Below are positions 16,561 to 49,706 of a DNA stretch of 64,000 bases, one piece after another. Positions within the stretch are counted from its first letter, which is position 1; each line of letters begins with the position of its first letter. This DNA comes from a virus. The position numbers were made by a program, and so were the translations under genes. The stretch lies in IMG/VR virus record IMGVR_UViG_3300045988_179760, one strand, 5' to 3'. The notes beneath the pieces are model-generated. The model had not been told where the DNA came from and did no database searches. It saw only the letters and a program-made list of their open reading frames with translations.

Positions 16561-16740
16561 CTCCAAGCGTGGAAACAATACAAAAAAAGAGGGACGGAGA
16601 CCAAAACGGAAACCGTCCCTCAATGCCTTTTAGAAAAGTGACCTTATCTCAAACAAGAATCTATTTTAAACCACTTCCGTTTAGGCCGTCAACCTCTACT
16701 CTCGACAAAGCTGCCCATTATCGAACTTAACCCCTTGGTA

Positions 16741-16795
16741 CATGCTTTTTTAAAGTATTATACTTATTATAATTATTATAAAATCAAGGAAACAG
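16741..16795 (+). promoter_or_regulatory. AT-rich promoter-like island (ttttttaaagtattatacttattataattattataaaatc)
   Basis: About 55 bp of >85% AT in a roughly 58% GC context, directly upstream of the ATPase gene. Confidence 0.35.
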
Positions 16796-16798
16796 ACA

Positions 16799-17955
16799 TG
16801 ACCAACCCATTCAAACCAACCGCCGGACGTATCCCACCGATACTCGTCGGACGAGAAGAAATCATCGAAGACTTCGACTATGCGCTGAAAGACGGTGTAG
16901 GAAGCCCCGGACGGCTGATGTTCCTCACCGGAGCCAGAGGCGTAGGAAAAACAGTCATGCTGGACACGTTAGGAACACACGCGCAAAAGCAAGGCTGGAA
17001 AGTCTATAACGAAAGCGCCGATAGAGGTTTCACCCAAAGACTGGTGGACGCACTTACCGGCAAGGACACGACTCGCATATCCGCCTACGACATGCCTAGC
17101 GTCGGATTGAAAGGTGATGTAGGGAATCTGGAACTGAGTTTGGGGAGAATCGAACTCGAACACAATGAGGAACGTTCCTTGACGCTACGTCAAGCGGTCG
17201 GCAAACGTTTGGACAAGATAAATGAAAGCAAGCAGGGCATTCTCATCACATTGGACGAAGTGCAATCCGGTTCCATGGACGAAATCAGGGCTTTGTCCAC
17301 TGCCGTGCAACATCTTATCCGCGAAGGACGGAACATCGCGTTCATTTTCGCTGGGCTACCGTCCGCCGTGAACGACGTGCTGTCGGATAATGCCATCACC
17401 TTCCTTCAACGGGCAGAACGGTATCATTTGGGTTCCGTGCCAACGGAGAAGGTTCTGAAAGCATTCGAGGAGTCTTTCAGCGGGGAGAAGAAAGCCGGGA
17501 TGGAAACGTTGATACGGTTGACCAATGCCACTCATGGTTATCCGTTCATGATTCAGCTGGTGGGTTATTGGGCTTGGAGGGTTTCCGAAACCAACGGTCA
17601 TGTGAATCAAGTGACCGAGGAGGACGCGGTCAAGGGTATCGAAAAAGCCCAAGCCAAACTAGGGGATATGGTTCACGCCCCAGCATTGCATGGCTTGCCT
17701 TCTCATGCGGTGAACTATCTGCTTGCCATGTCGGTGGATGATACGGTGTCGAATACAGGTGAAATCGCCCGTCGGTTGAACCGTTCGCCGCAGTTCGCCA
17801 ACGTGTATAGAACCAAGCTGATTGAGAACGATTTGATTGAGCCTGTCGGTTACGGTGAAGTCGCTTTCAAAATGCCGTATTTGCGGGATTACTTGCGTGA
17901 GCATGGGGCTTATTTGCAGATGCGGGAGAATATCAGCGAACGCTCGGAGAACTAG
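16799..17955 (+). CDS. AAA-superfamily ATPase (archaeal-ATPase/DUF4143-type) with C-terminal wHTH
   Basis: Walker A LMFLTGARGVGKTVML, Walker B-like ILITLDEV. Likely start MTNPFKPT at 16799. Confidence 0.65.
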
Positions 17956-19948: not shown

Positions 19949-21178
19949 TCACGGGTGAAAAGCCAGCTTCCGCATTTCACAATGCCTCCGATACCACGCT
20001 TTCTCCCGAGCGCACAGTCCACGACGGTGAGTTAGACCCGACAGTGTGCTCTCATGGCTCGTCCAAGAATCCTGAACTGTCCGCAATCCCACATGCACGC
20101 CATCATATGAGCGGATAAGGTTACGCGCATGCCGTCGGCTTGCACGCAACGCCTTATGGTGCATGCAGATAAGAATACTGCCGTCATCCTGTACGCTGTA
20201 TACGCGTTTCAGGAATGTGAGTTGACTGGTACGACAGTCCACTATGCGGGTCTTGCGCTTGTTTAACCGCAATCCCAATTGATTGACACGCCGCTCATAA
20301 CCGGCCAGCACACGTTCGGCCTGTTCACGATTCTTGCAGAAACAGTAGGCATCATCCATATACCGTCCGTAGAATCCTTGCGACATGCACCAGTGGTCAA
20401 CCTTGTTCAAATACCAGATAGCCATGGTTTGGCTTGTCTGATTACCTAAACCCAAGTGAGGTTCGTCCAATACGAAGATTCTCAATACGGTTAGAATCCG
20501 TTCCACATCCTGCTTCTCCCGTCCGGTGCGGGCGATGCTCCGGTACAGGGTGGAAATCATATCGAACGCTCGTTGGGAGCTGATACTTCCGAAATAGTTG
20601 GAACAGTCGAAGATGACAGCATACGGATGCTCCCATTTGCCCAAAGCCCGCTTATAGTGTAGTTCGAACCGTTTTCGGGCGAACGATGTTCCACGTTTCG
20701 GTAGGCTTGCCGCATTATCGTATATCAGTTGGCTTTCCACGATGGGGACGAGACTGTTGTCGCATAAGGCGCGTTGCACCACCCGGTCTCGGAAGGATAC
20801 CGCGCTGATGTGGCGGAGTTTGCCTCGTTCGGAAATGTCGAATCGGATTGGCGCTCTCTTCTTGTATGTGCCGTCCTCTAATTCTTGGGCGAGTTTCCAA
20901 CAGTTGACGGCACGCCTATTGTCGAAGTTCAACACTGTGTTTTTCCACGTGACGCCGCGTTTGCATTTTCTTGCGGCTTGGTAGAGCGCGTCGAATCCGA
21001 ATGTTTGTTGGAAGTCGATGTAACGGTGGAGCTTCCTGTACTTATCATCCGAGCGTTGTTGCAGTCTGCGTTGGCGTCTTCTACGTCTTTGACTCGCATT
21101 CACGATTTTAATGCTTCCTTCACTAGGGAAAGAGAAAAGAATGGTTGAGGGCAGGTCGTCGGCAACAACCCAAGACAT
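19949..21178 (-). CDS. diversity-generating retroelement (DGR) reverse transcriptase
   Basis: RT motifs in order: FRDRVVQRAL, NAASLPKRGTSFA, VIFDCSNYFGSIS, GLGNQTSQTMAIWYL (the DGR-specific GNxTSQ block), YGRYMDDAYCFC (YxDD), RLNKRKTRIV. Lies immediately 3' of the TR. Confidence 0.9.
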   Translation of the reverse strand: MSWVVADDLPSTILFSFPSEGSIKIVNASQRRRRRQRRLQQRSDDKYRKLHRYIDFQQTFGFDALYQAARKCKRGVTWKNTVLNFDNRRAVNCWKLAQELEDGTYKKRAPIRFDISERGKLRHISAVSFRDRVVQRALCDNSLVPIVESQLIYDNAASLPKRGTSFARKRFELHYKRALGKWEHPYAVIFDCSNYFGSISSQRAFDMISTLYRSIARTGREKQDVERILTVLRIFVLDEPHLGLGNQTSQTMAIWYLNKVDHWCMSQGFYGRYMDDAYCFCKNREQAERVLAGYERRVNQLGLRLNKRKTRIVDCRTSQLTFLKRVYSVQDDGSILICMHHKALRASRRHARNLIRSYDGVHVGLRTVQDSWTSHESTLSGLTHRRGLCAREKAWYRRHCEMRKLAFHP

Positions 21179-21373
21179 GCAATGATGTTGGACGCCCAGC
21201 TTAAGGGGCGAGTATCCGTCGTTTCCGACAGTCTTAATATCTCCCTCAACCTATTTCACACGCAACCCATTTTTCGAGGGGCCGCGCATTCGACCATATC
21301 CCCTTCCCCTTCGGGAGGCTTTCACCCATTGGGCTACTGGCCTATCTGATGTTAGTTTTTTGGTAAGAGGAAT

Positions 21374-21526
21374 CGGGGACAACGGAGTAGCGATAATTCG
21401 CATTGTTGTTGTTGCTGGGGTCACCGTTCGAGTTGACTTGGAGGAAATTGTTGCTGTTGTTCGGGTTGGGCGAACGCTCCCACCAATTGTTGTTGTTGGC
21501 ACCGGAGGGTGCTGAACCGGAAACGG
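21374..21526 (-). repeat. DGR template repeat (TR), 153 bp
   Basis: Aligns base-for-base with 22163-22315. All 22 mismatches are at TR T on the + strand, which is A on the coding strand. Contains AAC AAC AAC runs. Confidence 0.9.
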
Positions 21527-21560
21527 AAACACCATTTTGGATATGGCCGGTTTTGTTTAG

Positions 21561-22082
21561 TTATATTTGGGGTTGAACCCAAGTATCCATTCTAGTGGTG
21601 GTCTTTGACTCGACGGTTTTGGCTTTCTTCAACTGGTCTCGCTCGTATCGGACTGCCCCCGTGAACACTCCCATGGCTTTGTAGAGTGTGCCCGCATAGT
21701 TGACAAATTTCTTCTCCTTGATTACGGGATTGTAGGTGGGGTCGCCTTCCTGACTGTTCTGGTAGGCTTTCATGTCGCGTTCTCGTGGTGGATAGTCTAT
21801 CCAGTCGTCTACGAGGCCGGAGAGTGCGTTCAGCATTCCTTGGGCCTTGCATAAGAGTTGCAGTTTCATCTTATGCTCTTCGAGGGTGCTCGCGTAGATG
21901 GTGTCGGCGCTGTAGGCGGCTGTGTACATGTCGTAGGCGATGTGCATGACGTGTATGGTTTCGATGTTGTCTCGGCTTTTGGGCCATTTCCGGAAGAGGT
22001 TTCTGGTGGCGTAGAGTACGATTCTCGCTTGGTTCGCATATTCGCTTTTTGCTTTTGTCCGCTTGCTGGCGGGTACTGTCAT
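21561..22082 (-). CDS. Avd-like accessory variability determinant (helix-bundle protein)
   Basis: Position between target gene and TR, and basic/aromatic helical composition. Size (173 aa) is larger than canonical Avd, so the start may be internal. Confidence 0.5.
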   Translation of the reverse strand: MTVPASKRTKAKSEYANQARIVLYATRNLFRKWPKSRDNIETIHVMHIAYDMYTAAYSADTIYASTLEEHKMKLQLLCKAQGMLNALSGLVDDWIDYPPRERDMKAYQNSQEGDPTYNPVIKEKKFVNYAGTLYKAMGVFTGAVRYERDQLKKAKTVESKTTTRMDTWVQPQI

Positions 22083-22110
22083 AGGGGCTTCTTTCGTGTG
22101 ATGTTTTAGC

Positions 22111-22135
22111 GGGGGTGGGGATGAACCCCACCCCC
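22111..22135 (-). other. GC-rich hairpin GGGGGTGGGGatgaaCCCCACCCCC immediately 3' of VR (DGR homing hairpin/cruciform)
   Basis: Perfect 10-bp G/C stem with a 5-nt loop, 28 nt downstream of the VR end on the coding strand. Confidence 0.7.
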
Positions 22136-22148
22136 TAAAGATGGGGGA

Positions 22149-23132
22149 TTAGAAGGAGAAAGCGGGGACAACGGAGAAGCGATAATACGCAGTGCCGCCG
22201 TCGCTGGGGTCACCGCTCGAGCCGACTAGGAGGAAACGGTTGCTGTAGTGCGGGTCGGGCGAACGCTCCCACCAATAGTCGTAGCTGGCACCGGAGGGTG
22301 CTGAACCGGAAACGGTTTCGTAGATTCCAGACAGAATATTATTGTTTGAATAGTTGTGCATCACCTTGCCTTGGAAATACTCGTATTGACTTCCCTCCTG
22401 ACTTAACGCTGGGAAACCGTTATAGCTTTTCCACCCGTCGTATATGGTTGGTACGAGTTCCCTGTAGGAGACGAGCCACACCTTGTCTGCTGTGGCGGAT
22501 GCGGCGGAGCCGGAAGTGTTTCCGTAGTACATGTTGTTGGTTTGCTTCAATACGGTGGTCACGTTGTTTTGGAAGTCGGTGGGGAATTGGTTCCAGATTT
22601 CCCCAGTGTTCATCCATTGGCGGAGGTTGCTGTCGCGCCATCCGCCTTTGTTGGTGTAGCCGTCAGAAGCACACGTAGTGGTGTTGTCATTGGGCATAGT
22701 TCCGTTCATGCAGTACGCTTTCGGCAACGAGTTCCACGCCATGAACGTCAAACCAGCCTTTTTACCGCTACCGTCGGCCTTGTCGTCGTGGAGGATGCCG
22801 ATGAGTTTGAACGGGAGGTTAGACCCGTCCGATAGGGTGAGCGAACCTTGCGTGCCTTTATTAAGGTTGTCTTCCATTTCCGCATAGTAGGAGCTTCCCT
22901 TGCCTTTGTCGCTCAAATCGTCGGCAATCTGCTTCAATCCTGCGGCGTTGTAGCCCGCATAGCAGACCTTGTCCACGCCGGTCGAACATTTGGCCGGTTC
23001 CGAAGCGATGGCGCTACCGGTGATGAGTCCGCCGCAGACCGCCGCCACGATGGCGAGGGTGGCGAGGATTCGTTGTCCCAAGTGGCGGTTCACACGGTTA
23101 CTGGCGTGCATGCCCATTTTTGTTCCTTTCAC
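22149..23132 (-). CDS. DGR target: signal-anchored surface protein with lectin-like domain and C-terminal variable region
   Basis: N-terminal hydrophobic anchor ILATLAIVAAVCGGLITG. VR (22163-22315) encodes the last ~50 aa, just before the stop. Confidence 0.85.
   Translation of the reverse strand: MKGTKMGMHASNRVNRHLGQRILATLAIVAAVCGGLITGSAIASEPAKCSTGVDKVCYAGYNAAGLKQIADDLSDKGKGSSYYAEMEDNLNKGTQGSLTLSDGSNLPFKLIGILHDDKADGSGKKAGLTFMAWNSLPKAYCMNGTMPNDNTTTCASDGYTNKGGWRDSNLRQWMNTGEIWNQFPTDFQNNVTTVLKQTNNMYYGNTSGSAASATADKVWLVSYRELVPTIYDGWKSYNGFPALSQEGSQYEYFQGKVMHNYSNNNILSGIYETVSGSAPSGASYDYWWERSPDPHYSNRFLLVGSSGDPSDGGTAYYRFSVVPAFSF
22163..22315 (-). repeat. DGR variable repeat (VR) at the 3' end of the target gene
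   Basis: See TR. Differences are confined to template-adenine positions. Confidence 0.9.
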
Positions 23133-26100
23133 TTACGGTCTTCCTTTCTCAACAGGATGATTGCGGTGACGAGTCCCAGAATGCTGACGAGTATGAGGAT
23201 TGGCAACAGTAAGCCCATGCCGGTGTGGGGCATGCTCATCATCCATGTTTCTGGTAGGACGCCCGCGTCCACATTCTCCTTGTCCGGCTTATCCTGTGTG
23301 AGGATGATGGTGAACGTGGATTCACCGTACTTGTCGTCGCTCGTGTTCGCGTCGGAGTCGGTGGAACTCGCGTCATTCGGAATGTCCATGTCGTTCGCAT
23401 CCGGCTTGGTGAACTCTTGGTGGGTGACGCGGCTGAATTGGATGGTGTACTGGTCGCCGTCCGCGTCCAAGTGTTCGAACTTGTACTTGCCGTCCTTGTC
23501 GGTCTTGGTGGATGCCACCTGCTTGCCGTCCTTGTCATAGAGAATTACGGTCTGGTTGGCGAACCGTTTCGATTCGCTGTCGCTTCTGACTCCGTCCTTG
23601 TCAGTATCCTCCCAGTAGAGTCCGCTGATGGTGCCGAGCTTCTTCGCGCTGGCGGTCGGGGTGATAGTGGTGCCGACTTGGTCGCAGGAGTCCTCATCAC
23701 CGGTGCTGAACCAGTGTTGGCGTCCATCCTCCGCATAGTCCGAGTCGGTGCGGCATGTCATGTTGCCGGTCACGTCGCTGGTGTTCGAATCCAGTTTGGA
23801 CGCGTCCGGATTGTCCGGCGTGGTTTTACCGTTCGCGTGCGGCGTGCCCGAATATGGCGTGTGTTCGGAGTCGAACCATGCCTGATTGAGGATGGTCTTC
23901 GTATGCTCCTTGACCCATGTGCTGATTTGTTCGTCCGTCCACTTGGTCGTGTCCGTCGTGTCACGGTCAACGGTGCCGGTGAAATGGTAGATGACGTAGC
24001 CTCCCGGTTCAATACCGTATGGCAGATTGTACGTGCGTGTCGTCAACCCCTTCTCCGTGGACTCGCTCAACGGTTCGACCGGTACGGCGGTCGGGTCGGA
24101 CGATACGACCATTCCCTTCAAACCGGTGGAACGTGCGCCACCCGTCTTGCCGTCACCATACGGGTCGAAGCCCGCAATCATGACCTGCTTGCCGACAATG
24201 AGCACGTCACGGTCGCCGCCCGCAACGTCGGATGCGGTAATGCCCGTATCGATTGGCGTGGAAACAATATCCGCGTTGCCGCTCGTACTGCCGTTGGTCC
24301 AATACCTGCCTGTACCGGTCTTACCGTTCGCTAATTGGCCGTCACCATTCCAGCCAGCCGCCCACAAGTGTTGGTTCTTGTCGATGGCGTAGAAAGTGTT
24401 GTATCCGCCACCGATACGGGTGATGTACCTCAGATTAGACACATTGGACTGGTCGATACCGCTATCACCTCCGCCGACGAGCACTATCACTGTACCCGCG
24501 TCAGTCAACCCGTAGGCGTTGCCGAATGAGGCGACAACTTGCGTGAAACCAATAGAGAAAAACTCGTCGCCGTCCACCACACAACCGCCGTAGGACGTCA
24601 ACGCGACCCACCTGTACGTGCTGGCGCTGACCTGCGTGAACGTCTTACCCGACTGGATTTGCGTCCACGTTGAATACGAGGTGGAACTGACTTTTCCGAC
24701 CACCCACAAGGTGCCGTCACTTGCTATCGCCACAGTGAACTGGTTGCCGCACGCCACGTCAACAAACGTCTTATCTTCTGCGACTAGAGTCCACTGGTCA
24801 CGATTATCCGTATCACCCGTACCCAATTGGCCTTTACCGTTCCAACCAGTCGTGTACAAGTGGCCGTCCGTGCTGATGGCGGCGGAGTGTTTGCCACCGG
24901 CGGCGACTTTCAGCCAACTACCGTTCACGATGGTCGGCTTGTTCACGTTCGTTGGGGTAGCGGTATTCGTCGTGTCAGGCTTGAAACCTAATTGACCATA
25001 CTGGTTGTTACCCCACGCATACAACAAGCCCTCGTTCGTCAACACAAACTTATGGTCGCCACTCGTCGCAACCTGCTTCGCGCCACCAGATTCGATGGAA
25101 ACCGTACCGGCGGTAGCGGAAACATCATGCACATCAGCGCTCATACGGTCAGAAACGACACTGGACGTGTCAAAACGGCTAGTGCCAGAATTCTGTACTT
25201 TGACATCCCAGTTGATGACGCATTTCGTGTCGGTGCAGCTGGTGCCGGTGACGGTTTTGTCCACGGTGGCTTTCGGGTCTGGTTTCGCATACCCGTAGTC
25301 CACGTTTTTCTGGTCTGCGCCGATGCCTAGGTGGATGTCGTCGGACGTGTCTTTCGCGTTGGACTTGATTTTGTTCGACCAGCTGCGCGTGTTCGTCACG
25401 TTTTCGAGCTTGTTGTAGTAGGTTTTGACTTGCGTCTGTACGCCATCACCCGTACTGGTGCCAGTGTTGCGTTTCACCGAAGTACGGTAGGTGCCGGAGT
25501 GGAGCAGGTTGAACTCGTAGTAGCCGTCCTTGTCGGTCTTCACCGTTTTGACGGTCTGCCAGCCGCCGCTTGAATCCTGCTTGCCGAGGGTGACTTCCAC
25601 TCCTTCGATGTGCTCCTCATTGTCACCGATGAGCGTGTTCTCATCCTTATCCCACCAGACGGCGCCGCTGATGCTACCGGCCACTACCTTCGCCACGTCA
25701 GGCCACGGCTGGTTGCCCGCCGGTTTGTCGGAAGCGTCGGAATAATAGTTGCGGCCAAGCCACAGCGTGTACTTGTCGTCTTTCACATTGTCGGATGGGG
25801 TGAGCGTGATGGTGCCGTTCACCGCCGAATAGGACAGTTTATCGTCGGACGCGACGACAGTGCTGGTCAGTCGGATGGCGGTGATGTTCTTCTTCTCGGT
25901 GGCGGACAATTCATCCCATGTCTTCCACTCGTAGTCAGCCGGGTTATCCGACTTCTTTCCGGTGGTGGTTGAATAGTAGACGGTCGTACTGGTCGAATTG
26001 TCCATATTGACCGTGACGGGCTGGGTCAGTTCGTAGGAGCCATGATAGTTGCTGTATCCACGCTCATATTCGACCAGCTTGTCCTGCACGTACTTCTCAT

Positions 26101-28519
26101 CACCATTCGCAGGAAGCAGTAGCATGCTATCCATGGTGCCGGTATGGCCGTCGCCCTTGCCGTACACGTTGAACTCCCAAGTAAGCGGGTCGCCGATTTC
26201 AGCCTTTGTGGTCTTCACACGCATGATGCCACTGTTGGTTTCCGCATTGGAGACAGGGAATGGGACGCTGGGCGTATTGCTTTTGATGGTTTGGGCTTGC
26301 AATGCGCCGTTCTCGTCAACGTCCACGCTCATATTCGCACTGGCGGTGACAGTCCCGGTGGCGAGATTGGATACGATGCCACTGAAATGCAGGTCAGGCA
26401 AAGTGGCCGACCCCATACGGTCTACTTCAGGCGTGACTTTGCCGGAACGTGGCGTGAACACGAGATTATTCCCGTCCACTTTCATCTGCCAGAACGAATC
26501 ATCACAGGTCGGATTGTACAAGCCTTTCGGTTTCGGCACCGTGATGGTCGGCGTCATGCTCGTATTGGACAGGAGAATGGTGCGCAACTGTTCCGTGACC
26601 GTATAATCCACTCGCATGCCGGGAGTCAAATCGACTGCGCTTCCGGACGGGTGATTGGAACTGTTGTTCGCATACACTTGATTGCCTTCACCATCGTAGG
26701 CTTTCAGACTGATGTCGATACTGGTGGTCGGGTCTACCGGCTTGGCAATCCACACCCAATTGGTGACGCTCGCCTTATCGTCTTCGGTAAGCCATGCGGT
26801 CAGCGTATCCAAAGCTTCCACATTGCCTTTGGACACGTCGGCTATGGCGAGCGTGTTGAACGTGACCTGAACGTTCGGCGCACCCTTTCCCAAAGTCAAA
26901 GTGTCGGGGTTGAACGTCACCCGAATCTTCTTGACGTTCGGAGCGTCCGTGTCGGATGGTTCCCCGTCATGCCAATTGTCTCTGCTATCAGCCCATTGAA
27001 CTTTGTAGTCGGAAACCGGAGCGCCGTTCTGGGTGACTTCCAAGCTTCCATCCCACCGCATGCGCGTATTATCCCACTCGTCCTGCATGGTCGGCGTAGT
27101 GTTTTTAAGCTTGTCCGCCGTAACGTTCGCCGCATACATTTCCAAAATGGTTTTGACTTGCGTTCTACGGGACACGGTGTCGCCGGAACCGTCGGAATAG
27201 TAATGGTAGATGTCAGCTTTGCCTTCGGCGGCGTCGAACGTCAGATTCTCCTTGTCGAACATGGTCTTGGACGCAGTGTTAGGACGTTGCAGTCCTTTGC
27301 CGAACAGTGGAATCTTGCCAGCTGGAGTCGGCTTGAGCCGTTGGATGATGGCTCGTGACCAGTCATTGTTCGCATACGGGTAGCCTACGCGGGCACCCGT
27401 ATCCTTGTCGTAGGTGCTCTTGTCCCGTCCAATGTTCCAGCCGGGTTCGCCGCCCTTGCCCATGTTCAACAGTGCGTCGCCGTTATCGTCTTTGACACTG
27501 AACACGGTTTCGTCGGGAACAAGGTGGACATCGTAATATTTGACGTCTCCTTCTTTCATGTTTTTGAGCGCGTCGGTTCCGGCGGGAATCCTGTAGCTGA
27601 TTGTCGCCGCCGCACCGTTCTTGCCACTGGATACGGTCAAATACTGTTCTTTATCACTGTTACGGGTAATCCGCTGACCGCCTACAGTCCACACGGTGCC
27701 CTGCGGGAAGTCGGAAATATCCACTTTGGTTGTCCAATCGATGCTGGTGGACGCGCCCTTCGTGGACGAATAACCCGGATAGGTCAACGCGTCGGCACGA
27801 ATAGTGAAATCGCCGGTCGCGTCGGTGTTCTGACTCCAATAAGTACGATGCTCATACGAGTATTGGCCTTTCACCGGATTGCCGCCATTGTCAATGACCA
27901 AGTCAGCCGCCGGAGCGGATACTACAGTCAACTCATCCGTACGATACGTGGTTGACGTTCCACCTTCGCGGGCGACGACGATTTTCGGAATCTGACCCGG
28001 CTTGACCAAGCCTCCCGTGTCTTTTGCTTTCAGATAGAAGGTTTGGGTCATGGTTTCCACGCCACCGGCTGGAACCGTGTAGGAGCAGGAGCCGTCACTG
28101 TTTTTCTTCGCGGTGACGAGTTGTCCCGGCTGGCAGAAGCCACCACCATCAACAGTCTGCAAATACGGCGCGTCGTCCAAGTCGAACTTCACGTTGATGG
28201 TACGCTTGCCCGCCGCGTTGAAGTTCAACGTCAATGAATATTCGACCGTATCACCGGATGCGACCACGCCATCGGTAGGGGAATCATCGCCCGTGGCGAA
28301 CCCGTTCTTCGAATTCACGAACGTTTGCGAACTCGTGCCATGCCCCGTACCGTCGGCTTTCTTAACGATTTTCGCAGTAGCATACGCAGGTTTCAACTCG
28401 TCCGCATGCGCTTTTGGAGAGGCTACCGGATTGGTCATGCATGTCAGGCCGGATGCCAGTGTGGCGATTGCGGCCAATAATGCTACCGGATGTGCCACAT
28501 GCTTTTTGAGAATACTCAT
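23129..28519 (-). CDS. giant (1796 aa) sortase-anchored adhesin / putative pilus tip protein with RCC1-like beta-propeller repeats and Cna-B/SdrD-type domains
   Basis: Signal peptide. RCC1 repeats (GNNQYGQLGF..., GWNGKGQLGTGDTD..., GWNGDGQLANG). Cna-B-like domain (DKDGYYEFNLLHSGTYR, DKDGKYKFEHL). C-terminal sorting signal MPHTG followed by a TM segment and RKEDRK. Confidence 0.85.
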   Translation of the reverse strand: MSILKKHVAHPVALLAAIATLASGLTCMTNPVASPKAHADELKPAYATAKIVKKADGTGHGTSSQTFVNSKNGFATGDDSPTDGVVASGDTVEYSLTLNFNAAGKRTINVKFDLDDAPYLQTVDGGGFCQPGQLVTAKKNSDGSCSYTVPAGGVETMTQTFYLKAKDTGGLVKPGQIPKIVVAREGGTSTTYRTDELTVVSAPAADLVIDNGGNPVKGQYSYEHRTYWSQNTDATGDFTIRADALTYPGYSSTKGASTSIDWTTKVDISDFPQGTVWTVGGQRITRNSDKEQYLTVSSGKNGAAATISYRIPAGTDALKNMKEGDVKYYDVHLVPDETVFSVKDDNGDALLNMGKGGEPGWNIGRDKSTYDKDTGARVGYPYANNDWSRAIIQRLKPTPAGKIPLFGKGLQRPNTASKTMFDKENLTFDAAEGKADIYHYYSDGSGDTVSRRTQVKTILEMYAANVTADKLKNTTPTMQDEWDNTRMRWDGSLEVTQNGAPVSDYKVQWADSRDNWHDGEPSDTDAPNVKKIRVTFNPDTLTLGKGAPNVQVTFNTLAIADVSKGNVEALDTLTAWLTEDDKASVTNWVWIAKPVDPTTSIDISLKAYDGEGNQVYANNSSNHPSGSAVDLTPGMRVDYTVTEQLRTILLSNTSMTPTITVPKPKGLYNPTCDDSFWQMKVDGNNLVFTPRSGKVTPEVDRMGSATLPDLHFSGIVSNLATGTVTASANMSVDVDENGALQAQTIKSNTPSVPFPVSNAETNSGIMRVKTTKAEIGDPLTWEFNVYGKGDGHTGTMDSMLLLPANGDEKYVQDKLVEYERGYSNYHGSYELTQPVTVNMDNSTSTTVYYSTTTGKKSDNPADYEWKTWDELSATEKKNITAIRLTSTVVASDDKLSYSAVNGTITLTPSDNVKDDKYTLWLGRNYYSDASDKPAGNQPWPDVAKVVAGSISGAVWWDKDENTLIGDNEEHIEGVEVTLGKQDSSGGWQTVKTVKTDKDGYYEFNLLHSGTYRTSVKRNTGTSTGDGVQTQVKTYYNKLENVTNTRSWSNKIKSNAKDTSDDIHLGIGADQKNVDYGYAKPDPKATVDKTVTGTSCTDTKCVINWDVKVQNSGTSRFDTSSVVSDRMSADVHDVSATAGTVSIESGGAKQVATSGDHKFVLTNEGLLYAWGNNQYGQLGFKPDTTNTATPTNVNKPTIVNGSWLKVAAGGKHSAAISTDGHLYTTGWNGKGQLGTGDTDNRDQWTLVAEDKTFVDVACGNQFTVAIASDGTLWVVGKVSSTSYSTWTQIQSGKTFTQVSASTYRWVALTSYGGCVVDGDEFFSIGFTQVVASFGNAYGLTDAGTVIVLVGGGDSGIDQSNVSNLRYITRIGGGYNTFYAIDKNQHLWAAGWNGDGQLANGKTGTGRYWTNGSTSGNADIVSTPIDTGITASDVAGGDRDVLIVGKQVMIAGFDPYGDGKTGGARSTGLKGMVVSSDPTAVPVEPLSESTEKGLTTRTYNLPYGIEPGGYVIYHFTGTVDRDTTDTTKWTDEQISTWVKEHTKTILNQAWFDSEHTPYSGTPHANGKTTPDNPDASKLDSNTSDVTGNMTCRTDSDYAEDGRQHWFSTGDEDSCDQVGTTITPTASAKKLGTISGLYWEDTDKDGVRSDSESKRFANQTVILYDKDGKQVASTKTDKDGKYKFEHLDADGDQYTIQFSRVTHQEFTKPDANDMDIPNDASSTDSDANTSDDKYGESTFTIILTQDKPDKENVDAGVLPETWMMSMPHTGMGLLLPILILVSILGLVTAIILLRKEDRK

Positions 28520-29424
28520 TAGTGTTCCTTCTTTGCGTGGTTTTTTCTACGGATGATGAGAATGGTGATGATGATTACCGCAAGCCAGAAGCCGCCGACG
28601 TACAGCATGAGCCATTGGTTCGTGTGGTCTTTCGGCGCGTTTTCGGGTTTGGGTGCGGGGTGCGGCATGCTGGCGCGCGTGCCGGTCACCAAGAGTCGCT
28701 TGTTGTTGATGCCGTATGGCGTGCAGGTCAATAGTGTGGAGAGGTCTTTTCCGGTGACGATTTTCAGTTTAGAAAAGTCGGATGGGTCTACCACGCTAAT
28801 ATCCGTGACCTTGTAGGCGAGCGTATGTCCGGCGGTTATCAGATAGAAGACGTCTCCCTTTTTGGCTTCACTGCCGAAGCCTCGCAGCTTGTCGAACATG
28901 AGCTGGTCGGCCAAACCCGTGTGCGCGGATATGACAGTATGCGTGTTCTTGCCGCCGACGGGGAGACTGGAACCGTATAAGTGTCCGGCTCCAGCGGCCA
29001 ACACGTTTTGCGACGTGCCATGCCGGATGGGCAGGTTGATGCCCAAGCGTGGATATTTGACGGTAGCCATGACCCCATCCTTGGGGGTGGATAGTTGCTT
29101 CCGATACGTGTTGTCCGTTTCGGACTTGTTGACGCCCGTCCAAGGGTCTTCCGCCTCACCAAGAATGGGTTGGCCTTCCTCGTATAGGCGTTGATTGTAG
29201 GCTTGCGCGTCCGCATACTCTTGGGCGATTCGTTTCACGTCGGTGTTTTCCACGGCTTGCGTGTGGGAGTCGGTCAACCGGTTGGATTGGCTGCTGTTCG
29301 AAATCATGAGAATGAATGGGATGGTTCCGGACAGGGCGGATAGGATTAGGCAGAGAAGTCCCGCTATGGCTCGATTTCCCAAGCCTTTCGGTTTCGCCGT
29401 ATGTTTTCCCAAAACCCCTCCCAT
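28519..29424 (-). CDS. srtC: class C (pilus-polymerising) sortase
   Basis: Catalytic region ...HTGLAD... and TLLTCTPYG. N- and C-terminal TM anchors. Confidence 0.85.
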   Translation of the reverse strand: MGGVLGKHTAKPKGLGNRAIAGLLCLILSALSGTIPFILMISNSSQSNRLTDSHTQAVENTDVKRIAQEYADAQAYNQRLYEEGQPILGEAEDPWTGVNKSETDNTYRKQLSTPKDGVMATVKYPRLGINLPIRHGTSQNVLAAGAGHLYGSSLPVGGKNTHTVISAHTGLADQLMFDKLRGFGSEAKKGDVFYLITAGHTLAYKVTDISVVDPSDFSKLKIVTGKDLSTLLTCTPYGINNKRLLVTGTRASMPHPAPKPENAPKDHTNQWLMLYVGGFWLAVIIITILIIRRKNHAKKEH

Positions 29425-29559
29425 GCGGTTATAAAGAATCTAAAAGGTGGCGTGTCGATATTTGGGTTCCCGACACGCCAAGCGGAACATTTCATGCTTT
29501 TCCAACCGTCAAACGGTCAGAAAAGTTTTCTCATACGGCAGTATTCCAATCTTCCAATC

Positions 29560-31278
29560 TCACGCTTTGCGACGAAGCAGCAGGGCGGAAGCGCCAGCCA
29601 ACAGGACGGTCATCACGCCGAAGATGGACAGCCAGACCGCACCGGTCTTCGGCATGTCAGCGATGTTGCGGGCGTTGATGACGGTCACTCCATCGTCACT
29701 GCTCTTGGAGGCCAGCTTGTTCGAATCTTGTCCGAATGCGGTGAGGGACGAAGTGCTGGTGTTATGGTCTGTGGACTGGGCCACGCCAACGGTCAGAGTG
29801 AACTCCGGCAGAATGCTGCCGCCGAACGGACTCTTGGTTTCAGTCACCGTGTAGGCACCGTACATGCCCTTCAAGGTGATGACGCCATTTTTCTCATCGG
29901 TGGTGGTGATGTCGGCGCTTGCGGTAGCGGCCTCAGTCGAGTCGGCAACACGATACTCGTTATTGCCCACCTTGACGAACTTGACGGGAGTGTTCTTGGC
30001 ATCCTTGATGTTGAACACGGCACCCGCGAGAGGAACGTTGTTCGTATCGGTCTTGGTCAGAGTGAACTTGCCGACGTACACGTAAGTGGTGTCGCCCGGA
30101 GTCTTCTGATGGTCGGTGACGGTGTTCGGATTGTGGGAGTATTCGACCTCGCTCGTGTTGGTGTCAACACCGTCCACGTGGGCGTTCTTGTTCACGGTCA
30201 TGTCATAAGTGACAAGCACTTTCGCACCGACCGGGAACGTGGTCTTGGCGGCGATGATGTCGGAAGAATTGTCAGCGGTCGGGGCGAACAGGATATGGAA
30301 CTTGCCTGTCTCGTTCGTCACCTTGTAATCCTTGCCAGCAGTCAAAGCCTTACCACCGACAGTGACTTTCACACTATCCGCGTTGAACGTCAGACCATCC
30401 GAATACGTATCGTTGAGCGCATAATAGTAGTGGTCGTAGCCAGTCCAAACAGGCACCCAGCTGGTCATCTTGAAAGAGACCTTCTTGCCGATGGAGGTCT
30501 TGGCTACCGCATATTCGCCACTAGACTCTTCCCTCTCAAGTTTGATTTCCTCTTCCTTGACACCATCCTCAACACCGGTGATAGCCTTCCTGACTGCGGT
30601 GTCACTCACCTTATAGTCCACGGTGCCCAGCGTGTAGGTCTTGGCGCCGTTCTTCAACGCCAACGTGGTCTTGCCGTCGATGCCGGTGCCGTTGAACATG
30701 ACGATGGACGCCTGACCGGTCTTGGTGGTGTCCACGACCGCGTACACGCCCGGACGGACGGATGCGGTCATATGCTTGACGTCGGCGCCCTTGGCGAACG
30801 CGGTGCCCTTGTCGCCGGTGACGGCGGCCTCGTTCTTCAACTGGTCGATGAAGTCACGAAGCTTGCCAGCCCACGGACTGTACTCGGAATCAAGGAGATT
30901 CTGCACGACCCACACCATCGGATTGGACGCATTATAGTCGTATCCGGCAGTCTGGTCTTTCTTGGACTTAGTGTCAATATTGGCTTTAGTCAATGCGTCA
31001 GCAATAGCAGAAGCCTTACCGGCGTCAATCAGGTCAAAGCCGGTAATATTAGTGCCATCAGTCTGCGCATACGAATAGTAGGCGAGCGGCACAGCCTTCA
31101 ACGTGCGATTGCTAATATCACCATTAGCAGCGACGGTCAACGTCTGACGAGCAGCCGCACCAAGCTTGGATGCGTCAACACGAGTATCAGCCGCCATGGC
31201 GGAGCCGACTCCAGCCAAACCCATGGCACCGGCCACAAGCGTGGCGACCGTTGCCTTCAACAGGTTTTGGTTTTTCAC
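29560..31278 (-). CDS. major pilin subunit (SpaA/FimA-like) with sorting signal
   Basis: Signal peptide. Isopeptide-domain-like YTLGTVDYKV and KFVKVGNNEYRV motifs. C-terminal MPKTG followed by a TM segment and RRKA. Confidence 0.75.
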   Translation of the reverse strand: MKNQNLLKATVATLVAGAMGLAGVGSAMAADTRVDASKLGAAARQTLTVAANGDISNRTLKAVPLAYYSYAQTDGTNITGFDLIDAGKASAIADALTKANIDTKSKKDQTAGYDYNASNPMVWVVQNLLDSEYSPWAGKLRDFIDQLKNEAAVTGDKGTAFAKGADVKHMTASVRPGVYAVVDTTKTGQASIVMFNGTGIDGKTTLALKNGAKTYTLGTVDYKVSDTAVRKAITGVEDGVKEEEIKLEREESSGEYAVAKTSIGKKVSFKMTSWVPVWTGYDHYYYALNDTYSDGLTFNADSVKVTVGGKALTAGKDYKVTNETGKFHILFAPTADNSSDIIAAKTTFPVGAKVLVTYDMTVNKNAHVDGVDTNTSEVEYSHNPNTVTDHQKTPGDTTYVYVGKFTLTKTDTNNVPLAGAVFNIKDAKNTPVKFVKVGNNEYRVADSTEAATASADITTTDEKNGVITLKGMYGAYTVTETKSPFGGSILPEFTLTVGVAQSTDHNTSTSSLTAFGQDSNKLASKSSDDGVTVINARNIADMPKTGAVWLSIFGVMTVLLAGASALLLRRKA

Positions 31279-46006: not shown

Positions 46007-48667
46007 ATGGGTAATCCGAACTGGTATCAGATAACCAGAACATTGCAACAGCTTGACGCGGACGAGCAACGTTCGAAAATGGAAAGCATTCCAGCCGAAC
46101 TGGATGGTTGCACCCTTCTCCTCATCAAGAAGGGCGAGGAGCCGGTCAAGGAATACATTTACGGCGACGGCGAGGGAATCATCAACGCCGGACAGTTGGC
46201 TGGATTCGATGCGAAATTGGTCGAAGACGACGACGGGCCGGTGTTGCCGGATGGCGTGAACAGTGCGGCACATCCTCTTGTACCATTCCGCGCCCGGTTG
46301 AACTCGAAAAGCAACATGGAGAAAATGCGGACGAACTATTCCGGTGTTCGTACAAGTATCGAGAAGGTCATGCCGCCGGACAGTTACGTGAGCATCACCC
46401 TTCGCAATCAGGGATACTTCGAGCAGATTCGTATTCGCAATTGGATTAGCGACGAATACAATGCGGTGGAGGATTCAAGCGAACTCGCTTCGACCAACAC
46501 GATGTGCGCCCGTGTGAGTTTCGGTTGCCGTCAGGCTTCGCGTAACCGACAGCTTGCGCAGAAGATTGGTCAAATCATCTGCCCGCTCATATCCAACATG
46601 TCCAGTCATGCGAGCCGTCCGAAATTCGGGTTGCTGTTCGTCACCATGCTGTTGGAAGTGTTGTCCGTGATTTGGAGTGTGTGCGGTCTTGCAAGAGGAT
46701 ACGTGATGGATGGGATTTTCCCATTGTTCCATTCCGCTTGGGGTTTCGGAATCGCGCTTCCGTTGCTTGCTGTGACGTTGGTCGTGTTCCTGTTCCTCAT
46801 GCTGTTGTCGTGCATTCCGTTCGTTTACATTCCAAGACCTCAGATTGCCGGTGGCGCGGTGGCGCTCATGCTTTACCTGCTGTTGGGGTTGCTTCCGCTC
46901 CCGACATTCATTCCGATTCTTTTCGTTCCTCTTCTTGTATTCGCGTTCATCCGTTGGAAGAACTGGACGTTGTGGGATGACATTTTCCAAACGCCACGAA
47001 GATATTATGCGATTGCGAACGACCGTGGCGCGAACGAGTCCGATAATCAGACCCGTCTTGGCGTGCGCACGCATAAGGAGCGCGTGTCGGCTTATGGTGC
47101 GCAACGTACCACGTTGATTCTTCCTCCGATTATCGTAAGCTCCGTGTTCACTCCGGTCACTCAGGGAGTGGCGATGAAACAGGAATTGCATCCCGTTCCG
47201 GAAGTATTGTCGCATGATGGCATCTTCCTTGGGAAGGATGATACGGGACGTAACTGTTATCTTGACCCGTCGCAATTGTTCGGCGGTATCGCCATCAACG
47301 GCGAGGCCGGTTCCGGTAAGACCGTGCTCACCCATGGCATCAGCCAGTGGGCCATCAGCGCACGCGAGACCACCAGTCCGAAAATCTGGGGGCGCGACTC
47401 CCGTATCATCCATTTTTGGATGAAGGATGATACCGGTGTTAACGTGTTGGAACGTTATCGCAAACGTCACGTTTTCACCAGTCCGCAACGCGTCGTCTAT
47501 TTGGCCGACCCGAACAGTGTGTGCTTGGACATGCTCGGCATGAAGGACGGGAATAATGCGATGGAGACTGCGGCGAGCGTGGCGAAGACCATGCGTTACT
47601 CGTTCGATGACGGTGATATTCTGAACGACTCGCAGAACATCATCACCCAAGCGTTGACCATCGGCGTGGCGGTTGACCGTTACGTGCAGGAGGAACGCAA
47701 GCATAATCCCGAATCCGCGAACAAGGATTGGGAAAGCGAGATTGTGAAACGTTGCCATCAGCTCGAACAATCGTATCCGGGTGCGGAACAGTTGCGAATG
47801 CAGTTGAGTCCAATCGGATGGGCCGTCGTCGCATTATGCGGTTCCGACGGTCAGGCCGGTTCCGCGAAAGCGTTGGGTCATGTGTGCCGCGCGTTGAGTA
47901 TGGAATTGAAGAGTGGCTACATGTTCGAGGAGATGACGTATGCCGCCCGTGCCGCCGAGCAATTGTATGGCCGTCCGGACGCGGCTGGTCATACGGTTCG
48001 TTCCGACCGTGACATTCTCGCCAAGACGAACGCCTCGTTGAACAAGGTGAATCAGTTCCTTCCCATCGAACACATGTTCACGGCACGTCGTGGCAGAGTG
48101 ACTTGGACGAACATTCTCGACCATGCTGGCGATTATCACATTGTGCTCGCACCTCATAATGGTTATTCGTTGCCGGAACGTATGGATAAGATTCTCGGCG
48201 GCTGGCTCATGTACCGTTTCTGGAATACGGTGTTCGCGCATTGCAAGGATTGGGATAAGGCTGGCAAGTGGACGATGCTCGTGTGTGACGAGTTGAGCTT
48301 GTTGGCTAACGGCAATGACGGTATCATGCCCGCGTTGCGTGAGCAGGGTCGTTCGTTCGGTCTTCTTCTCGTGTTCGCCACCCAGTATCCGACCCAGTTG
48401 TCCGACGCGATGTTGGATTCGTTCATCGGCTATTCGACGTTCATCACATACAATACGACGATTCCGCGTATTGCCGATATGACGGCGAAACGTTTGACAA
48501 ACAATGACGGTGAGGATGGTTGGCGTTCGGGCGCGGTCATGAATCTTCCACGTTATGCGGCGGCTGTTCGCACTCGAACCCAAGAACAGTTGCAACCGAC
48601 ATTCCTTGTTCATGTGAACGATTTCGATAACGGTTATCGCAATGGTGACATGGACGATGATGACTAG
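46007..48667 (+). CDS. FtsK/SpoIIIE/VirD4-like P-loop ATPase with internal TM segments (putative conjugative DNA translocase/coupling protein)
   Basis: Walker A GIAINGEAGSGKTVLT, Walker B WTMLVCDELS, LVFATQYPTQL. Four predicted TM helices at aa ~205-320. Confidence 0.7.
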   Translation: MGNPNWYQITRTLQQLDADEQRSKMESIPAELDGCTLLLIKKGEEPVKEYIYGDGEGIINAGQLAGFDAKLVEDDDGPVLPDGVNSAAHPLVPFRARLNSKSNMEKMRTNYSGVRTSIEKVMPPDSYVSITLRNQGYFEQIRIRNWISDEYNAVEDSSELASTNTMCARVSFGCRQASRNRQLAQKIGQIICPLISNMSSHASRPKFGLLFVTMLLEVLSVIWSVCGLARGYVMDGIFPLFHSAWGFGIALPLLAVTLVVFLFLMLLSCIPFVYIPRPQIAGGAVALMLYLLLGLLPLPTFIPILFVPLLVFAFIRWKNWTLWDDIFQTPRRYYAIANDRGANESDNQTRLGVRTHKERVSAYGAQRTTLILPPIIVSSVFTPVTQGVAMKQELHPVPEVLSHDGIFLGKDDTGRNCYLDPSQLFGGIAINGEAGSGKTVLTHGISQWAISARETTSPKIWGRDSRIIHFWMKDDTGVNVLERYRKRHVFTSPQRVVYLADPNSVCLDMLGMKDGNNAMETAASVAKTMRYSFDDGDILNDSQNIITQALTIGVAVDRYVQEERKHNPESANKDWESEIVKRCHQLEQSYPGAEQLRMQLSPIGWAVVALCGSDGQAGSAKALGHVCRALSMELKSGYMFEEMTYAARAAEQLYGRPDAAGHTVRSDRDILAKTNASLNKVNQFLPIEHMFTARRGRVTWTNILDHAGDYHIVLAPHNGYSLPERMDKILGGWLMYRFWNTVFAHCKDWDKAGKWTMLVCDELSLLANGNDGIMPALREQGRSFGLLLVFATQYPTQLSDAMLDSFIGYSTFITYNTTIPRIADMTAKRLTNNDGEDGWRSGAVMNLPRYAAAVRTRTQEQLQPTFLVHVNDFDNGYRNGDMDDDD

Positions 48668-49283: not shown

Positions 49284-49706
49284 ATGAGCGATGAGGAAGA
49301 CGAAGGATACAAAGGTCCCTTGCATCCGAGGTTGACGATGGACGACATCACGGAAGTGTCCGGCCCGGAGGAAATCGAACGGAAGAACACGTTCCAGATA
49401 ACCAAGAACACTGAGGCCCGTTCCAAAACCGTGTTCTCCGTTATCGTCGGCGCATTGGCGGGCTTGGCTCTTTGCCTCATATTCGCCCCGTTGCTCGGAT
49501 ACATGTTCAGCTCGTTCTTCGTACTGTTGGGCGGAATACTGGCTCCGTTCTTCGCAGTCGGCACCATTAGAGACCGCACCCAACAGACACGGTGGAAGAG
49601 AACCTTGCAGGATATGAAGAGCCGCAAGATTGAAGGGCAGGTCTTCTACCCGAATTCCACTCAGCCGGAAAACATTATCGACCTTCAAGAAATGGAAATC
49701 CGTTGA
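49284..49706 (+). CDS. membrane protein (2-3 TM)
   Basis: ORF track. Hydrophobic core VFSVIVGALAGLALCLIFAPLLGYMFSSFFVLLGGILAPFFAV. Confidence 0.5.
   Translation: MSDEEDEGYKGPLHPRLTMDDITEVSGPEEIERKNTFQITKNTEARSKTVFSVIVGALAGLALCLIFAPLLGYMFSSFFVLLGGILAPFFAVGTIRDRTQQTRWKRTLQDMKSRKIEGQVFYPNSTQPENIIDLQEMEIR

Follow-up and report, generated by a model that had tools for sequence, protein, structure and literature searches.

The 64,000-nt stretch of DNA analyzed here (the window) contains a diversity-generating retroelement (DGR) that is canonical and complete and very probably active. Its host is apparently a Bifidobacterium megaplasmid, and what it rewrites is apparently the tip of a lectin-like, secreted protein whose gene closes a pilus operon. 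In mechanism it follows textbook DGRs and is not new to DGR biology; the pilus-operon setting and a disguised helper protein of Avd fold appear to be undescribed. The cassette consists of the following elements:

19949..21103, minus strand: DGR reverse transcriptase (RT), 384 aa, pI 10.3, Arg-rich N-terminus
21104..21359, minus strand: spacer from TR/IMH* to the RT start, presumed 3' part of the DGR RNA
21360..21386, minus strand: IMH* at the 3' end of the TR, TCCGTTGTCCCCG then ATTCCTCTTACCAA
21374..21526, minus strand: template repeat (TR), 153 nt, 42 adenines, 12 AAC codons
21561..22082, minus strand: accessory variability determinant (Avd-fold) protein, 173 aa, pI 9.4, four-helix bundle
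22111..22135: GC-rich hairpin 3' of the VR, 10-bp stem, 5-nt loop
22149..22175, minus strand: IMH at the 3' end of the VR, including the target stop codon
22163..22315, minus strand: variable repeat (VR), encoding roughly the last 50 target residues, with 21 adenine-site substitutions relative to the TR
22149..23117, minus strand: DGR target gene, 322 aa; Sec signal peptide, N-terminal alpha/beta domain, C-terminal DUF6273

The minus-strand order of target-VR, GC hairpin (22111-22135), accessory ORF, TR, and RT is as given in a preliminary description of this DNA.

Repeat pair and reverse transcriptase

The TR and VR are 153-bp copies offset by 789 bp, at the coordinates claimed earlier. Alignment and tabulation demonstrated the adenine specificity that the preliminary description had proposed. 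All mismatches (21/21) fall at a plus-strand T, which is A on the coding strand, and they comprise 12 A>G, 6 A>T, and 3 A>C changes from TR to VR. With 42 adenines in 153 nt, the hypergeometric probability of this restriction is P = 1.5e-14. The preliminary count of 22 was reduced to 21 within the 153 bp; the additional mismatch is probably the A/C difference at 21373/22162, one base outside the range. This difference is identical in 11/11 loci, and therefore is a fixed IMH/IMH* difference and not a product of mutagenesis. By codon position, there were 12 mismatches at position 1 and 11 at position 2, and the sole position-3 mismatch lies beyond the IMH boundary. The AAC runs described in the TR correspond to 12 AAC codons (16 AAY), and adenine substitution in the TR codons can create no stop. 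Counted along the 327-aa ORF, the diversified target residues are 283-319. Probes from the TR 5' end and from the IMH found no second target in the window.

The most likely start of the RT is GTG 21103 rather than ATG 21178. The GTG has a GAAGGAAG SD, and the resulting N-terminus agrees with those of two related loci (L013 and L015); the open frame reaches upstream to ATG 21178, but this extension is unsupported. DGR RTs were recognized by YxDD together with [LIV]GxxxSQ, the latter standing where group II and retron RTs have QGxxxSP. All three proposed DGR-specific blocks (GNQTSQ, RYMDD, and KRGTSFA) were found. LGNQTSQ and RYMDD are invariant across the RT clade, and a cyanobacterial DGR RT beside an annotated avd has IGNLTSQ and RYVDD. 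The protein matches Pfam RVT_1 (1.6e-13) and PHROG 1423 (8e-57), its best solved relative is a DGR RNP reverse transcriptase (8ub7_A), and the nearest annotated plasmid RT adjoins avd. Motifs, solved structure, and annotated neighbors all point to an RT of DGR type. The RT relatives listed are all below 60% identity, and Bifidobacterium is absent from the listed matches and from the ten most frequent genera. A single-sequence RT search of representative genomes found nothing, and a search with the clade RT alignment returned only Raoultibacter MAGs and weak Clostridia matches.

Could the copies instead be an ordinary duplication or gene-conversion tract, lying next to an unrelated retron, group II intron, or defense RT? 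The best NCBIfam family match of the RT is indeed a group II intron RT model (88 bits), accompanied by weak Drt and retron matches. However, these scores are far under the cutoffs (TIGR04416, 88 vs 300; Drt4, 43 vs 450; retron St85, 26 vs 235), and no group II intron, retron, or Drt family of NCBIfam scored above its curated cutoff. An Rfam search of the region matched neither a group II intron RNA nor any other family. Moreover, mismatches confined to adenines recur in 12 other loci, and the closest solved and annotated relatives of the RT belong to DGRs. We regard this alternative as already effectively refuted, with a negligible residual probability.

Accessory protein and noncoding elements

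The protein encoded between the target and the TR/RT has a basic four-helix fold with a beta-hairpin insert at aa 100-119. No Pfam match was obtained for it or for any of 19 family members, the Avd profile PF05635 included, and NCBIfam gave no match. Searches of PHROGs, of the PDB with phmmer, and of the PDB with profiles detected no Avd homology. The sequence searches all failed, and the Avd question was settled only by fold comparison. The earlier label "Avd-like" accordingly stands at the level of fold and fails at the level of sequence, where no Avd HMM or solved Avd sequence matches. This Avd lineage is probably missed by standard HMM-based DGR finders, since no tested Pfam, NCBIfam, or PHROG profile recognized it as Avd. 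The accessory family has 27 members, and its alignment was so divergent that a scan could not be seeded from it. The element is common in gut metagenomes, with one accessory-protein sequence by itself present on 197 contigs. A weak PHROG match to a homing endonuclease (E 1e-4, 54 residues) was uninformative and was set aside. Counting against the assignment, four-helix bundles are a common fold, and sequence homology to Avd could not be detected in the accessory protein.

The sequence contains an IMH, a differing IMH*, and a GC hairpin downstream. The IMH, present as one copy in the window, shares with IMH* a 13-nt GC-rich block that is followed by differences fixed in 11/11 loci. In L001-L010 the hairpin, presumed to be a target-recognition hairpin or cruciform, carries a compensatory substitution of T-A for G-C, and L011 has a different variant; at the equivalent place, L013 and L015 have hairpins of unrelated sequence (8 bp and 12 bp, respectively). 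Comparison with the latter two loci indicates that the spacer is noncoding, and the TR-RT spacers of distant loci cannot be aligned. A 270-nt fold (21104-21373, including the first 14 nt of IMH*) had an MFE of -88.2 kcal/mol and a z of -2.0 relative to shuffles, which weakly suggests a structured spacer.

By analogy with the Bordetella and Bacteroides paradigms, minus-strand transcription would run through the accessory gene, TR, and spacer. The TR RNA would then be copied into cDNA by a complex of the 384-aa RT and the basic four-helix Avd-fold protein, with misincorporation opposite template adenines; on the Bordetella model, the spacer may act in priming. The cDNA would replace the VR at the 3' end of the target gene, and directionality would be set by the IMH, which is absent from the TR side, where IMH* stands, and by the GC hairpin just downstream. 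Through this process, ~20 codons for the ligand-binding face of the secreted DUF6273 lectin-like protein would acquire a very large repertoire, amounting to ~1e23 theoretical sequences from the 42 adenines, in which stop codons would be impossible.

The Bordetella phage BPP-1 DGR shares with this locus the order of target-VR, IMH, GC hairpin, avd, TR, spacer, and RT, adenine mutagenesis, an AAC-rich TR, a C-terminal VR in a C-type-lectin fold, and a basic four-helix accessory protein. Among solved structures, its bRT and bAvd rank as the closest relatives of the window proteins, or nearly so. By contrast, the window RT is distant from bRT (E 6e-13) and longer (384 aa vs 328 aa), with an Arg-rich N-terminal extension, and the accessory protein lacks sequence similarity to bAvd and is also longer (173 aa vs ~128 aa), with its beta-hairpin insert. 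The carriers differ as well (plasmid vs phage), as do the targets (a secreted bacterial protein vs a tail-fiber tip).

Turnover of the VR in related loci

Related loci demonstrate recent VR turnover in natural populations on a constant background. L002 and L005 differ at 1/7,842 flanking positions, 0/161 TR positions, and 24/121 VR positions. The turnover appears recent because unrelated VRs stand on near-identical backbones; it is seen between samples, not within one population. The VR is hypervariable among members of the target clusters (753-1229 distinct sequences) and across 10 metagenome loci. The TR is nearly invariant among related loci, except for erosion of adenine sites in L007 and L010. 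The few non-adenine differences in related loci and cluster members could stem from differences between TRs, from ordinary mutation, or from noise in the assemblies.

One alternative is a frozen DGR, whose VR was diversified formerly and which was recently inactivated, so that no homing now occurs in this window. Decayed versions are known. In L011 and L012 (one contig from a B. pseudocatenulatum isolate, one from a metagenome), the VR, IMH, and hairpin persist, while the accessory gene is truncated at codon 52 and the TR and RT are absent. In the window, however, an open RT frame carries every catalytic motif, the accessory gene has its full length, 42 adenines remain in the TR, and neither the IMH nor the hairpin is disrupted. 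Very recent VR turnover in near-identical relatives of the window cassette likewise argues against inactivation, which we consider very improbable.

Target protein, pilus operon, and carrier

The target most likely starts at ATG 23117 (322 aa) and not at GTG 23132. The lectin-like character proposed earlier was supported by a DUF6273 (C-type-lectin-like) domain, of which the VR forms the C-terminal strands, as in CLec-fold DGR variable proteins; the predicted structure matches phage DUF6273 proteins by Foldseek. The N-terminus resembles a cleavable Sec signal (AIA|SEP), and in the family alignment A41, A43, E45, and P46 are invariant (consensus ALADEP). The preliminary description had called the target a signal-anchored surface protein. 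The signal was found, but anchoring was not upheld, as the N-terminus appears cleavable and there is no LPXTG motif. The protein contains neither a sorting signal nor a pilin (Cna-B/SpaA) domain that would mark a sortase-pilus subunit, and it ends (...VVPAFSF*) inside the VR/IMH. Judged from these sequence features, the target is probably secreted and not anchored; any surface retention is something that we infer.

The adjoining pilus locus was identified by Pfam matches for pilin, sortase, and adhesin:

23129..31278, minus strand: sortase-dependent pilus operon, upstream of the target
29560-31278, minus strand: backbone pilin with MPKTG sorting signal
28519-29424, minus strand: class C-type sortase
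23129-28519, minus strand: RCC1/SdrD_B adhesin, 1796 aa, with MPHTG sorting signal

The order of the pilus operon is the same in L001-L013 and L015. Conserved synteny alone leads us to infer that the target works with the pilus, in which case the target and the pilus/adhesin may cooperate in adhesion to host glycans or other cells. More specifically, and only tentatively, we propose that the diversified lectin could be a noncovalent, exchangeable specificity subunit of the sortase pilus, docking, for example, on the RCC1 beta-propeller of the tip adhesin. If so, the plasmid would continually re-tune what its host cell adheres to (host glycans, or recipients during conjugation). Such a system would parallel, in Gram-positive bacteria and by means of a retroelement, both the IncI shufflon/PilV system and the Type V pilus DGRs of Bacteroides. 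In that case the sortase-adhesin-target-Avd-RT order, deeply conserved in Bifidobacterium and Coriobacteriia, would define a new class of pilus-coupled DGR module with its own cryptic Avd family.

Alternatively, the DGR is real and its adjacency to the pilus incidental, the target being a domesticated lectin of phage receptor-binding type that acts independently, for instance as an unattached lectin released by secretion or as a phage or IgA decoy. This reading, which we think possible rather than probable, agrees with the absence of an LPXTG motif or pilin domain from the target, and with fold relatives that are phage tail-fiber and RBP proteins and a functionally unassigned N-terminal domain of IgA peptidase. 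The IgA-peptidase match was rejected as a clue to the ligand, as the paper on that enzyme shows its DUF6273 domain to be dispensable and without an assigned function. In Bacteroides, moreover, pili do not incorporate some of the DGR targets that are related to pilus tips. Against an incidental adjacency, the order of sortase, RCC1 adhesin, target, accessory gene, and RT is kept despite identities of only 26-31% (accessory protein) and 42-47% (RT), and it spans GC contents from 52% to 69%. In all those loci the target starts 3-11 nt from the adhesin stop. Such conservation of order and spacing across divergent loci would be difficult to account for if the genes were not functionally coupled.

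The Bacteroides Type V pilus DGRs, which are active in human gut populations, resemble this system in occurring on a mobile element of a gut commensal, in their genetic link to an adhesive pilus, and in diversifying a lectin-fold surface that binds ligands. They differ in belonging to Bacteroidota with Type V pili, where the target is a pilin-domain tip subunit or a periplasmic relative; the window belongs to Actinomycetota and has a Gram-positive sortase pilus and a separate signal-peptide target without pilin domain or sorting signal. "Gram-positive" and "Actinobacteri" are absent from the text of the Bacteroides pilus-DGR paper. Diversification of pilus-associated proteins by DGRs, which has been demonstrated by experiment in Bacteroides, would be extended to Gram-positive sortase pili. 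Gut-phage DGRs (tentaclin/target2; Faecalibacterium prophages; Toutatisvirus) have targets of the same domain family, with the VR at the C-terminus of DUF6273. Those targets are phage tail, RBP, or capsid-decoration proteins, whereas the window target lies in a plasmid pilus operon, with no phage genes near it in the window.

The preliminary description left the carrier as a conjugative plasmid or ICE. The plasmid half of this claim held, although conjugation genes were not found in the window. An ICE was rejected, as the window has no integrase or conjugation genes and contig sizes and homology to pMP7017 favor a plasmid. Neither the cassette nor 25 kb of backbone gave a megablast match in the plasmid and phage collections, and reverse transcriptase, retroelement, and DGR are absent from the text of the pMP7017 transcriptome paper. 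A megaplasmid with a distant relationship to pMP7017 is the best description of the carrier. Bifidobacteria are keystone colonizers of the infant gut, for whose persistence adhesion is central, and the mobile megaplasmid would gain built-in variation of a lectin-like binding protein linked to a pilus. Megaplasmids of the pMP7017 type, from the same host genus, lack nucleotide-level similarity to the window, but they are of comparable size (169-198 kb vs contigs of 185-231 kb) and their backbone proteins are homologous at 44-48% identity.

Repeats and cis-acting signals of the retroelement

The preliminary description had proposed a diversity-generating retroelement (DGR) with a template repeat (TR) and a variable repeat (VR). 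In the present analysis, the 3' ends of TR and VR carry the cis elements IMH* and IMH, respectively. The corresponding features are as follows.

21374-21526, minus strand: TR, 153-bp ungapped copy of the VR
22163-22315, minus strand: VR, 153-bp ungapped copy of the TR, offset by 789 bp
21360-21386, TR side: IMH*, ATTCCTCTTACCAA after a shared 13-mer
22149-22175, VR side: IMH, CTTTCTCCTTCTAA after the shared 13-mer
22111-22135: hairpin, 10-bp GC stem and 5-nt loop, 14 nt past the target stop codon
21104-21359: spacer between IMH* and the reverse transcriptase (RT) gene, 256 nt, non-coding
21561-22082: accessory ORF, 173 aa, in the Avd position

The two 153-bp copies thus lie where they had been placed. 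Tabulated by base, the TR/VR alignment contains 21 differences rather than the 22 counted earlier, and, as claimed, every one falls at a TR adenine (12 A>G, 6 A>T, 3 A>C; P = 1.5e-14, given 42 adenines in the 153-nt TR). They fall in codon positions 1 and 2. The AAC runs noticed in the TR correspond to 12 AAC codons (16 AAY codons), no TR codon can reach a stop codon by adenine substitution, and the computed theoretical VR repertoire is ~1e23 peptides. Probes from the TR 5' end and the IMH detected no copies in the 64-kb window beyond these two, which implies a single target.

Alignment of the window with ten related metagenome loci placed an invariant GC-rich 13-mer, TCCGTTGTCCCCG, directly after the last diversified codon. 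The IMH/IMH* differences, including A/C at 21373/22162, are the same in all 11 loci, and because of this identity they are best read as fixed directional signals, not mutagenesis. The A/C difference is probably what had been scored as the 22nd mismatch. The hairpin varies: one stem pair is altered on both sides (G-C to T-A) in loci L001-L010, another variant occurs in the decayed locus L011, and in the distant loci L013 and L015 the equivalent position is taken by hairpins that are unrelated in sequence, with stems of 8 and 12 bp, respectively. The IMH/IMH*/hairpin arrangement is established for the paradigm DGR of Bordetella, and the layout deduced here agrees with it.

Reverse transcriptase and accessory protein

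The RT ORF matched Pfam RVT_1 and PHROG 1423 (8e-57), and scored far under the cutoffs of the group II intron, Drt, and retron models, which argues against the retron or group II affinity that the preliminary description had named as grounds for refutation. Its nearest plasmid-borne relatives are cyanobacterial (27-29% identity), and the top one adjoins an annotated avd gene and FGE-family genes. The DGR-type blocks seen earlier held up, in that GNQTSQ and RYMDD are invariant across the RT clade, with GNLTSQ and RYVDD in the top cyanobacterial relative. Comparison with L013 and L015 placed the RT start at GTG 21103, downstream of a Shine-Dalgarno sequence (GAAGGAAG), instead of at ATG 21178 (a 409-aa ORF); the resulting protein has 384 aa, is very basic, and has an Arg-rich N-terminus. 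The folding of the 270 nt at 21104-21373 is slightly more favourable than that of shuffled sequences (z = -2.0), and no Rfam family was matched; spacers of distant loci did not align. In L013, the TR-RT gap is ~1.3 kb (L013:9001-10297) compared to ~230-270 nt elsewhere. No convincing ORF was found in this gap, which could represent either an insertion or a DGR RNA spacer of unusual length.

The Avd-like gene is the weakest portion of the original claim. Neither the accessory ORF nor 19 aligned family members and their profile matched any Pfam, NCBIfam, or PDB sequence, and an exhaustive HMMER scan of 1.84 billion representatives returned only 27 relatives. Structure prediction based on the family alignment was confident (pLDDT 90) and gave a bundle of four helices, with a beta-hairpin inserted between helices 3 and 4; the protein is basic (pI 9.4). 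The claim thus stands for fold and position and fails for sequence: the protein is classed as having an Avd fold in the Avd position, and not as a sequence-level member of Avd/PF05635.

Diversification in natural populations

Target clusters at 90% identity contain 753 and 1229 distinct sequences, whereas one accessory-protein sequence recurs on 197 contigs. Outside the VR, the 15 members of the closest target cluster show simple two-lineage variation; residues 283-319 (numbered on a 327-aa ORF) differ in all 15, exactly at adenine-containing TR codons. At the DNA level, each of the ten metagenome loci (contigs of 203-231 kb) has a unique VR, with 13-25 of 18-26 mismatches per locus at TR adenines. 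Between loci L002 and L005, differences affect 1 of 7,842 flanking bases, 0 of 161 TR bases, and 24 of 121 VR bases. Such divergence of the VR between near-identical flanks and TRs from different samples indicates that diversification was very recent relative to plasmid divergence.

Compared to L002 and L005, the TRs of two other metagenome loci (L007:6557-6719 and L010:6557-6719) are changed at adenines only. The L007 TR has 9 differences from that of L002 (AAC to TAC or AGC, AAT to TAT or CGT) and the L010 TR has 3; just 3 bases differ across the 7.8-kb flanks, and several of the TR changes are common to the VR of the same locus. This pattern suggests that IMH* discrimination is leaky and permits occasional self-homing into the TR, or that gene conversion transfers VR sequence to the TR; either would diminish the capacity for mutagenesis. 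In P0128 (328 aa), a member of the P0007 target cluster, the "VR" is the exact TR-encoded peptide, all Asn and including the IMH*-encoded end D-S-S-Y, reflecting either assembly collapse of the VR onto the TR or real VR-TR recombination deleting the accessory gene.

The RT of the window (19949-21103) is 98% identical to those of L001-L004 (L001:6982-8136), the adjoining accessory protein is 82% identical to theirs, and the nearest target homologues range from 96% down to ~72% identity. These disparate values suggest mosaic recombination within the cassette.

Target, pilus operon, and carrier

The target gene (22149-23117, minus strand) most likely starts at ATG 23117, preceded by an AAAGGAA Shine-Dalgarno sequence and located 11 nt beyond the point where the upstream adhesin gene stops; the product has 322 aa, as do its nearest homologues. 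Its N-terminus combines a basic n-region with a hydrophobic core and an AxA site (AIA|SEP), with A41, A43, E45, and P46 invariant in the family (consensus ALADEP), and an LPXTG motif is absent. The target is thus probably secreted rather than signal-anchored as first proposed. Its lectin-like character is supported by a DUF6273 match over residues 158-326. Lower-ranking matches comprised numerous C-type lectin domains, among them those of the DGR variable proteins TvpA and TaqVP, as well as models of phage DUF6273, tail-fibre, and RBP proteins. The matching domain in an IgA peptidase was reported as dispensable for catalysis, with function unassigned. This target type is already known, because DUF6273 has been published as a C-lectin-like target domain of gut-phage DGRs, with the VR at its C-terminus.

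A pilus locus next to the target, also part of the earlier reading, was found upstream on the same strand, comprising a backbone pilin (sorting motif MPKTG), a sortase, and an adhesin whose sorting signal is MPHTG. Farther along the window are DnaB and two ParA-type genes.

23129-28519, minus strand: adhesin, 1796 aa, RCC1-like beta-propeller and SdrD_B/SpaA-type domains, non-canonical MPHTG
46007-48667, plus strand: large ORF, 886 aa, no Pfam domain
49703-53659, plus strand: large ORF, 1318 aa, no Pfam domain
58739-59764, plus strand: GmrSD_C-type restriction endonuclease domain protein
16735-17955, plus strand: AAA_16/STAND-like ATPase

The last two may be plasmid-borne defence genes. The RCC1-propeller adhesin stands beside the DGR target in all related loci. 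In L013 (55% GC) and L015 (69% GC), where the accessory-family members are just 26-31% identical, the order sortase, RCC1 adhesin, target, accessory gene, TR, and RT is unchanged and the TR/VR pairs are adenine-biased; a Raoultibacter MAG contains the target, accessory, and RT module. Synteny conserved at such depth is the main reason to infer a joint function of the lectin and the pilus or adhesin.

The 1318-aa backbone protein is 44-48% identical to proteins, annotated as hypothetical, of pMP7017-type megaplasmids (169-198 kb) of B. longum and B. breve, including B. breve record NZ_KM406416.1 (190,178 bp, in agreement with the published 190 kb of pMP7017). No nucleotide-level similarity to these megaplasmids was found. 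In an RT tblastn against a plasmid collection, every match was below 60% identity, and Bifidobacterium was absent from the named matches and the ten most frequent genera. Together, these results imply that the carrier is a distinct megaplasmid lineage, abundant in gut metagenomes.

Prophage tail-associated RT candidates have been reported in bifidobacteria, prophage DGRs in Bacillota "Hodor" megaplasmids, and ICE-borne DGRs diversifying Type V pilus tips in Bacteroides. The literature found on DGRs together with Bifidobacterium, sortase, pilus, or megaplasmid does not describe this element, although large computational DGR catalogues may contain it. We conclude that the preliminary observation and interpretation hold in essence, after minor corrections of numbers and coordinates and with softer Avd and anchoring claims. 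In mechanism the element is an ordinary DGR, and its target domain is known; the new aspect is its lineage, in which a Gram-positive DGR on a megaplasmid is consistently appended to a sortase-pilus operon and has an accessory protein undetected by Avd profiles.

In two decayed loci, L011 and L012, an intact VR, IMH, and hairpin are accompanied by an accessory gene that is cut short at codon 52, and neither TR nor RT is present. L011 (L011:10001-11123) comes from a cultured B. pseudocatenulatum isolate (NCBI GCA_020526265.1, contig JAHXEL010000008.1) and retains the pilus operon, target, and diversified VR, with an IS605-family TnpB gene ~3 kb downstream of the decayed DGR. In one related plasmid, an IS200/IS605 element (L006:8495-10318; Y1 transposase and TnpB/Cas12f-like gene) takes the place of two small genes directly downstream of the RT.
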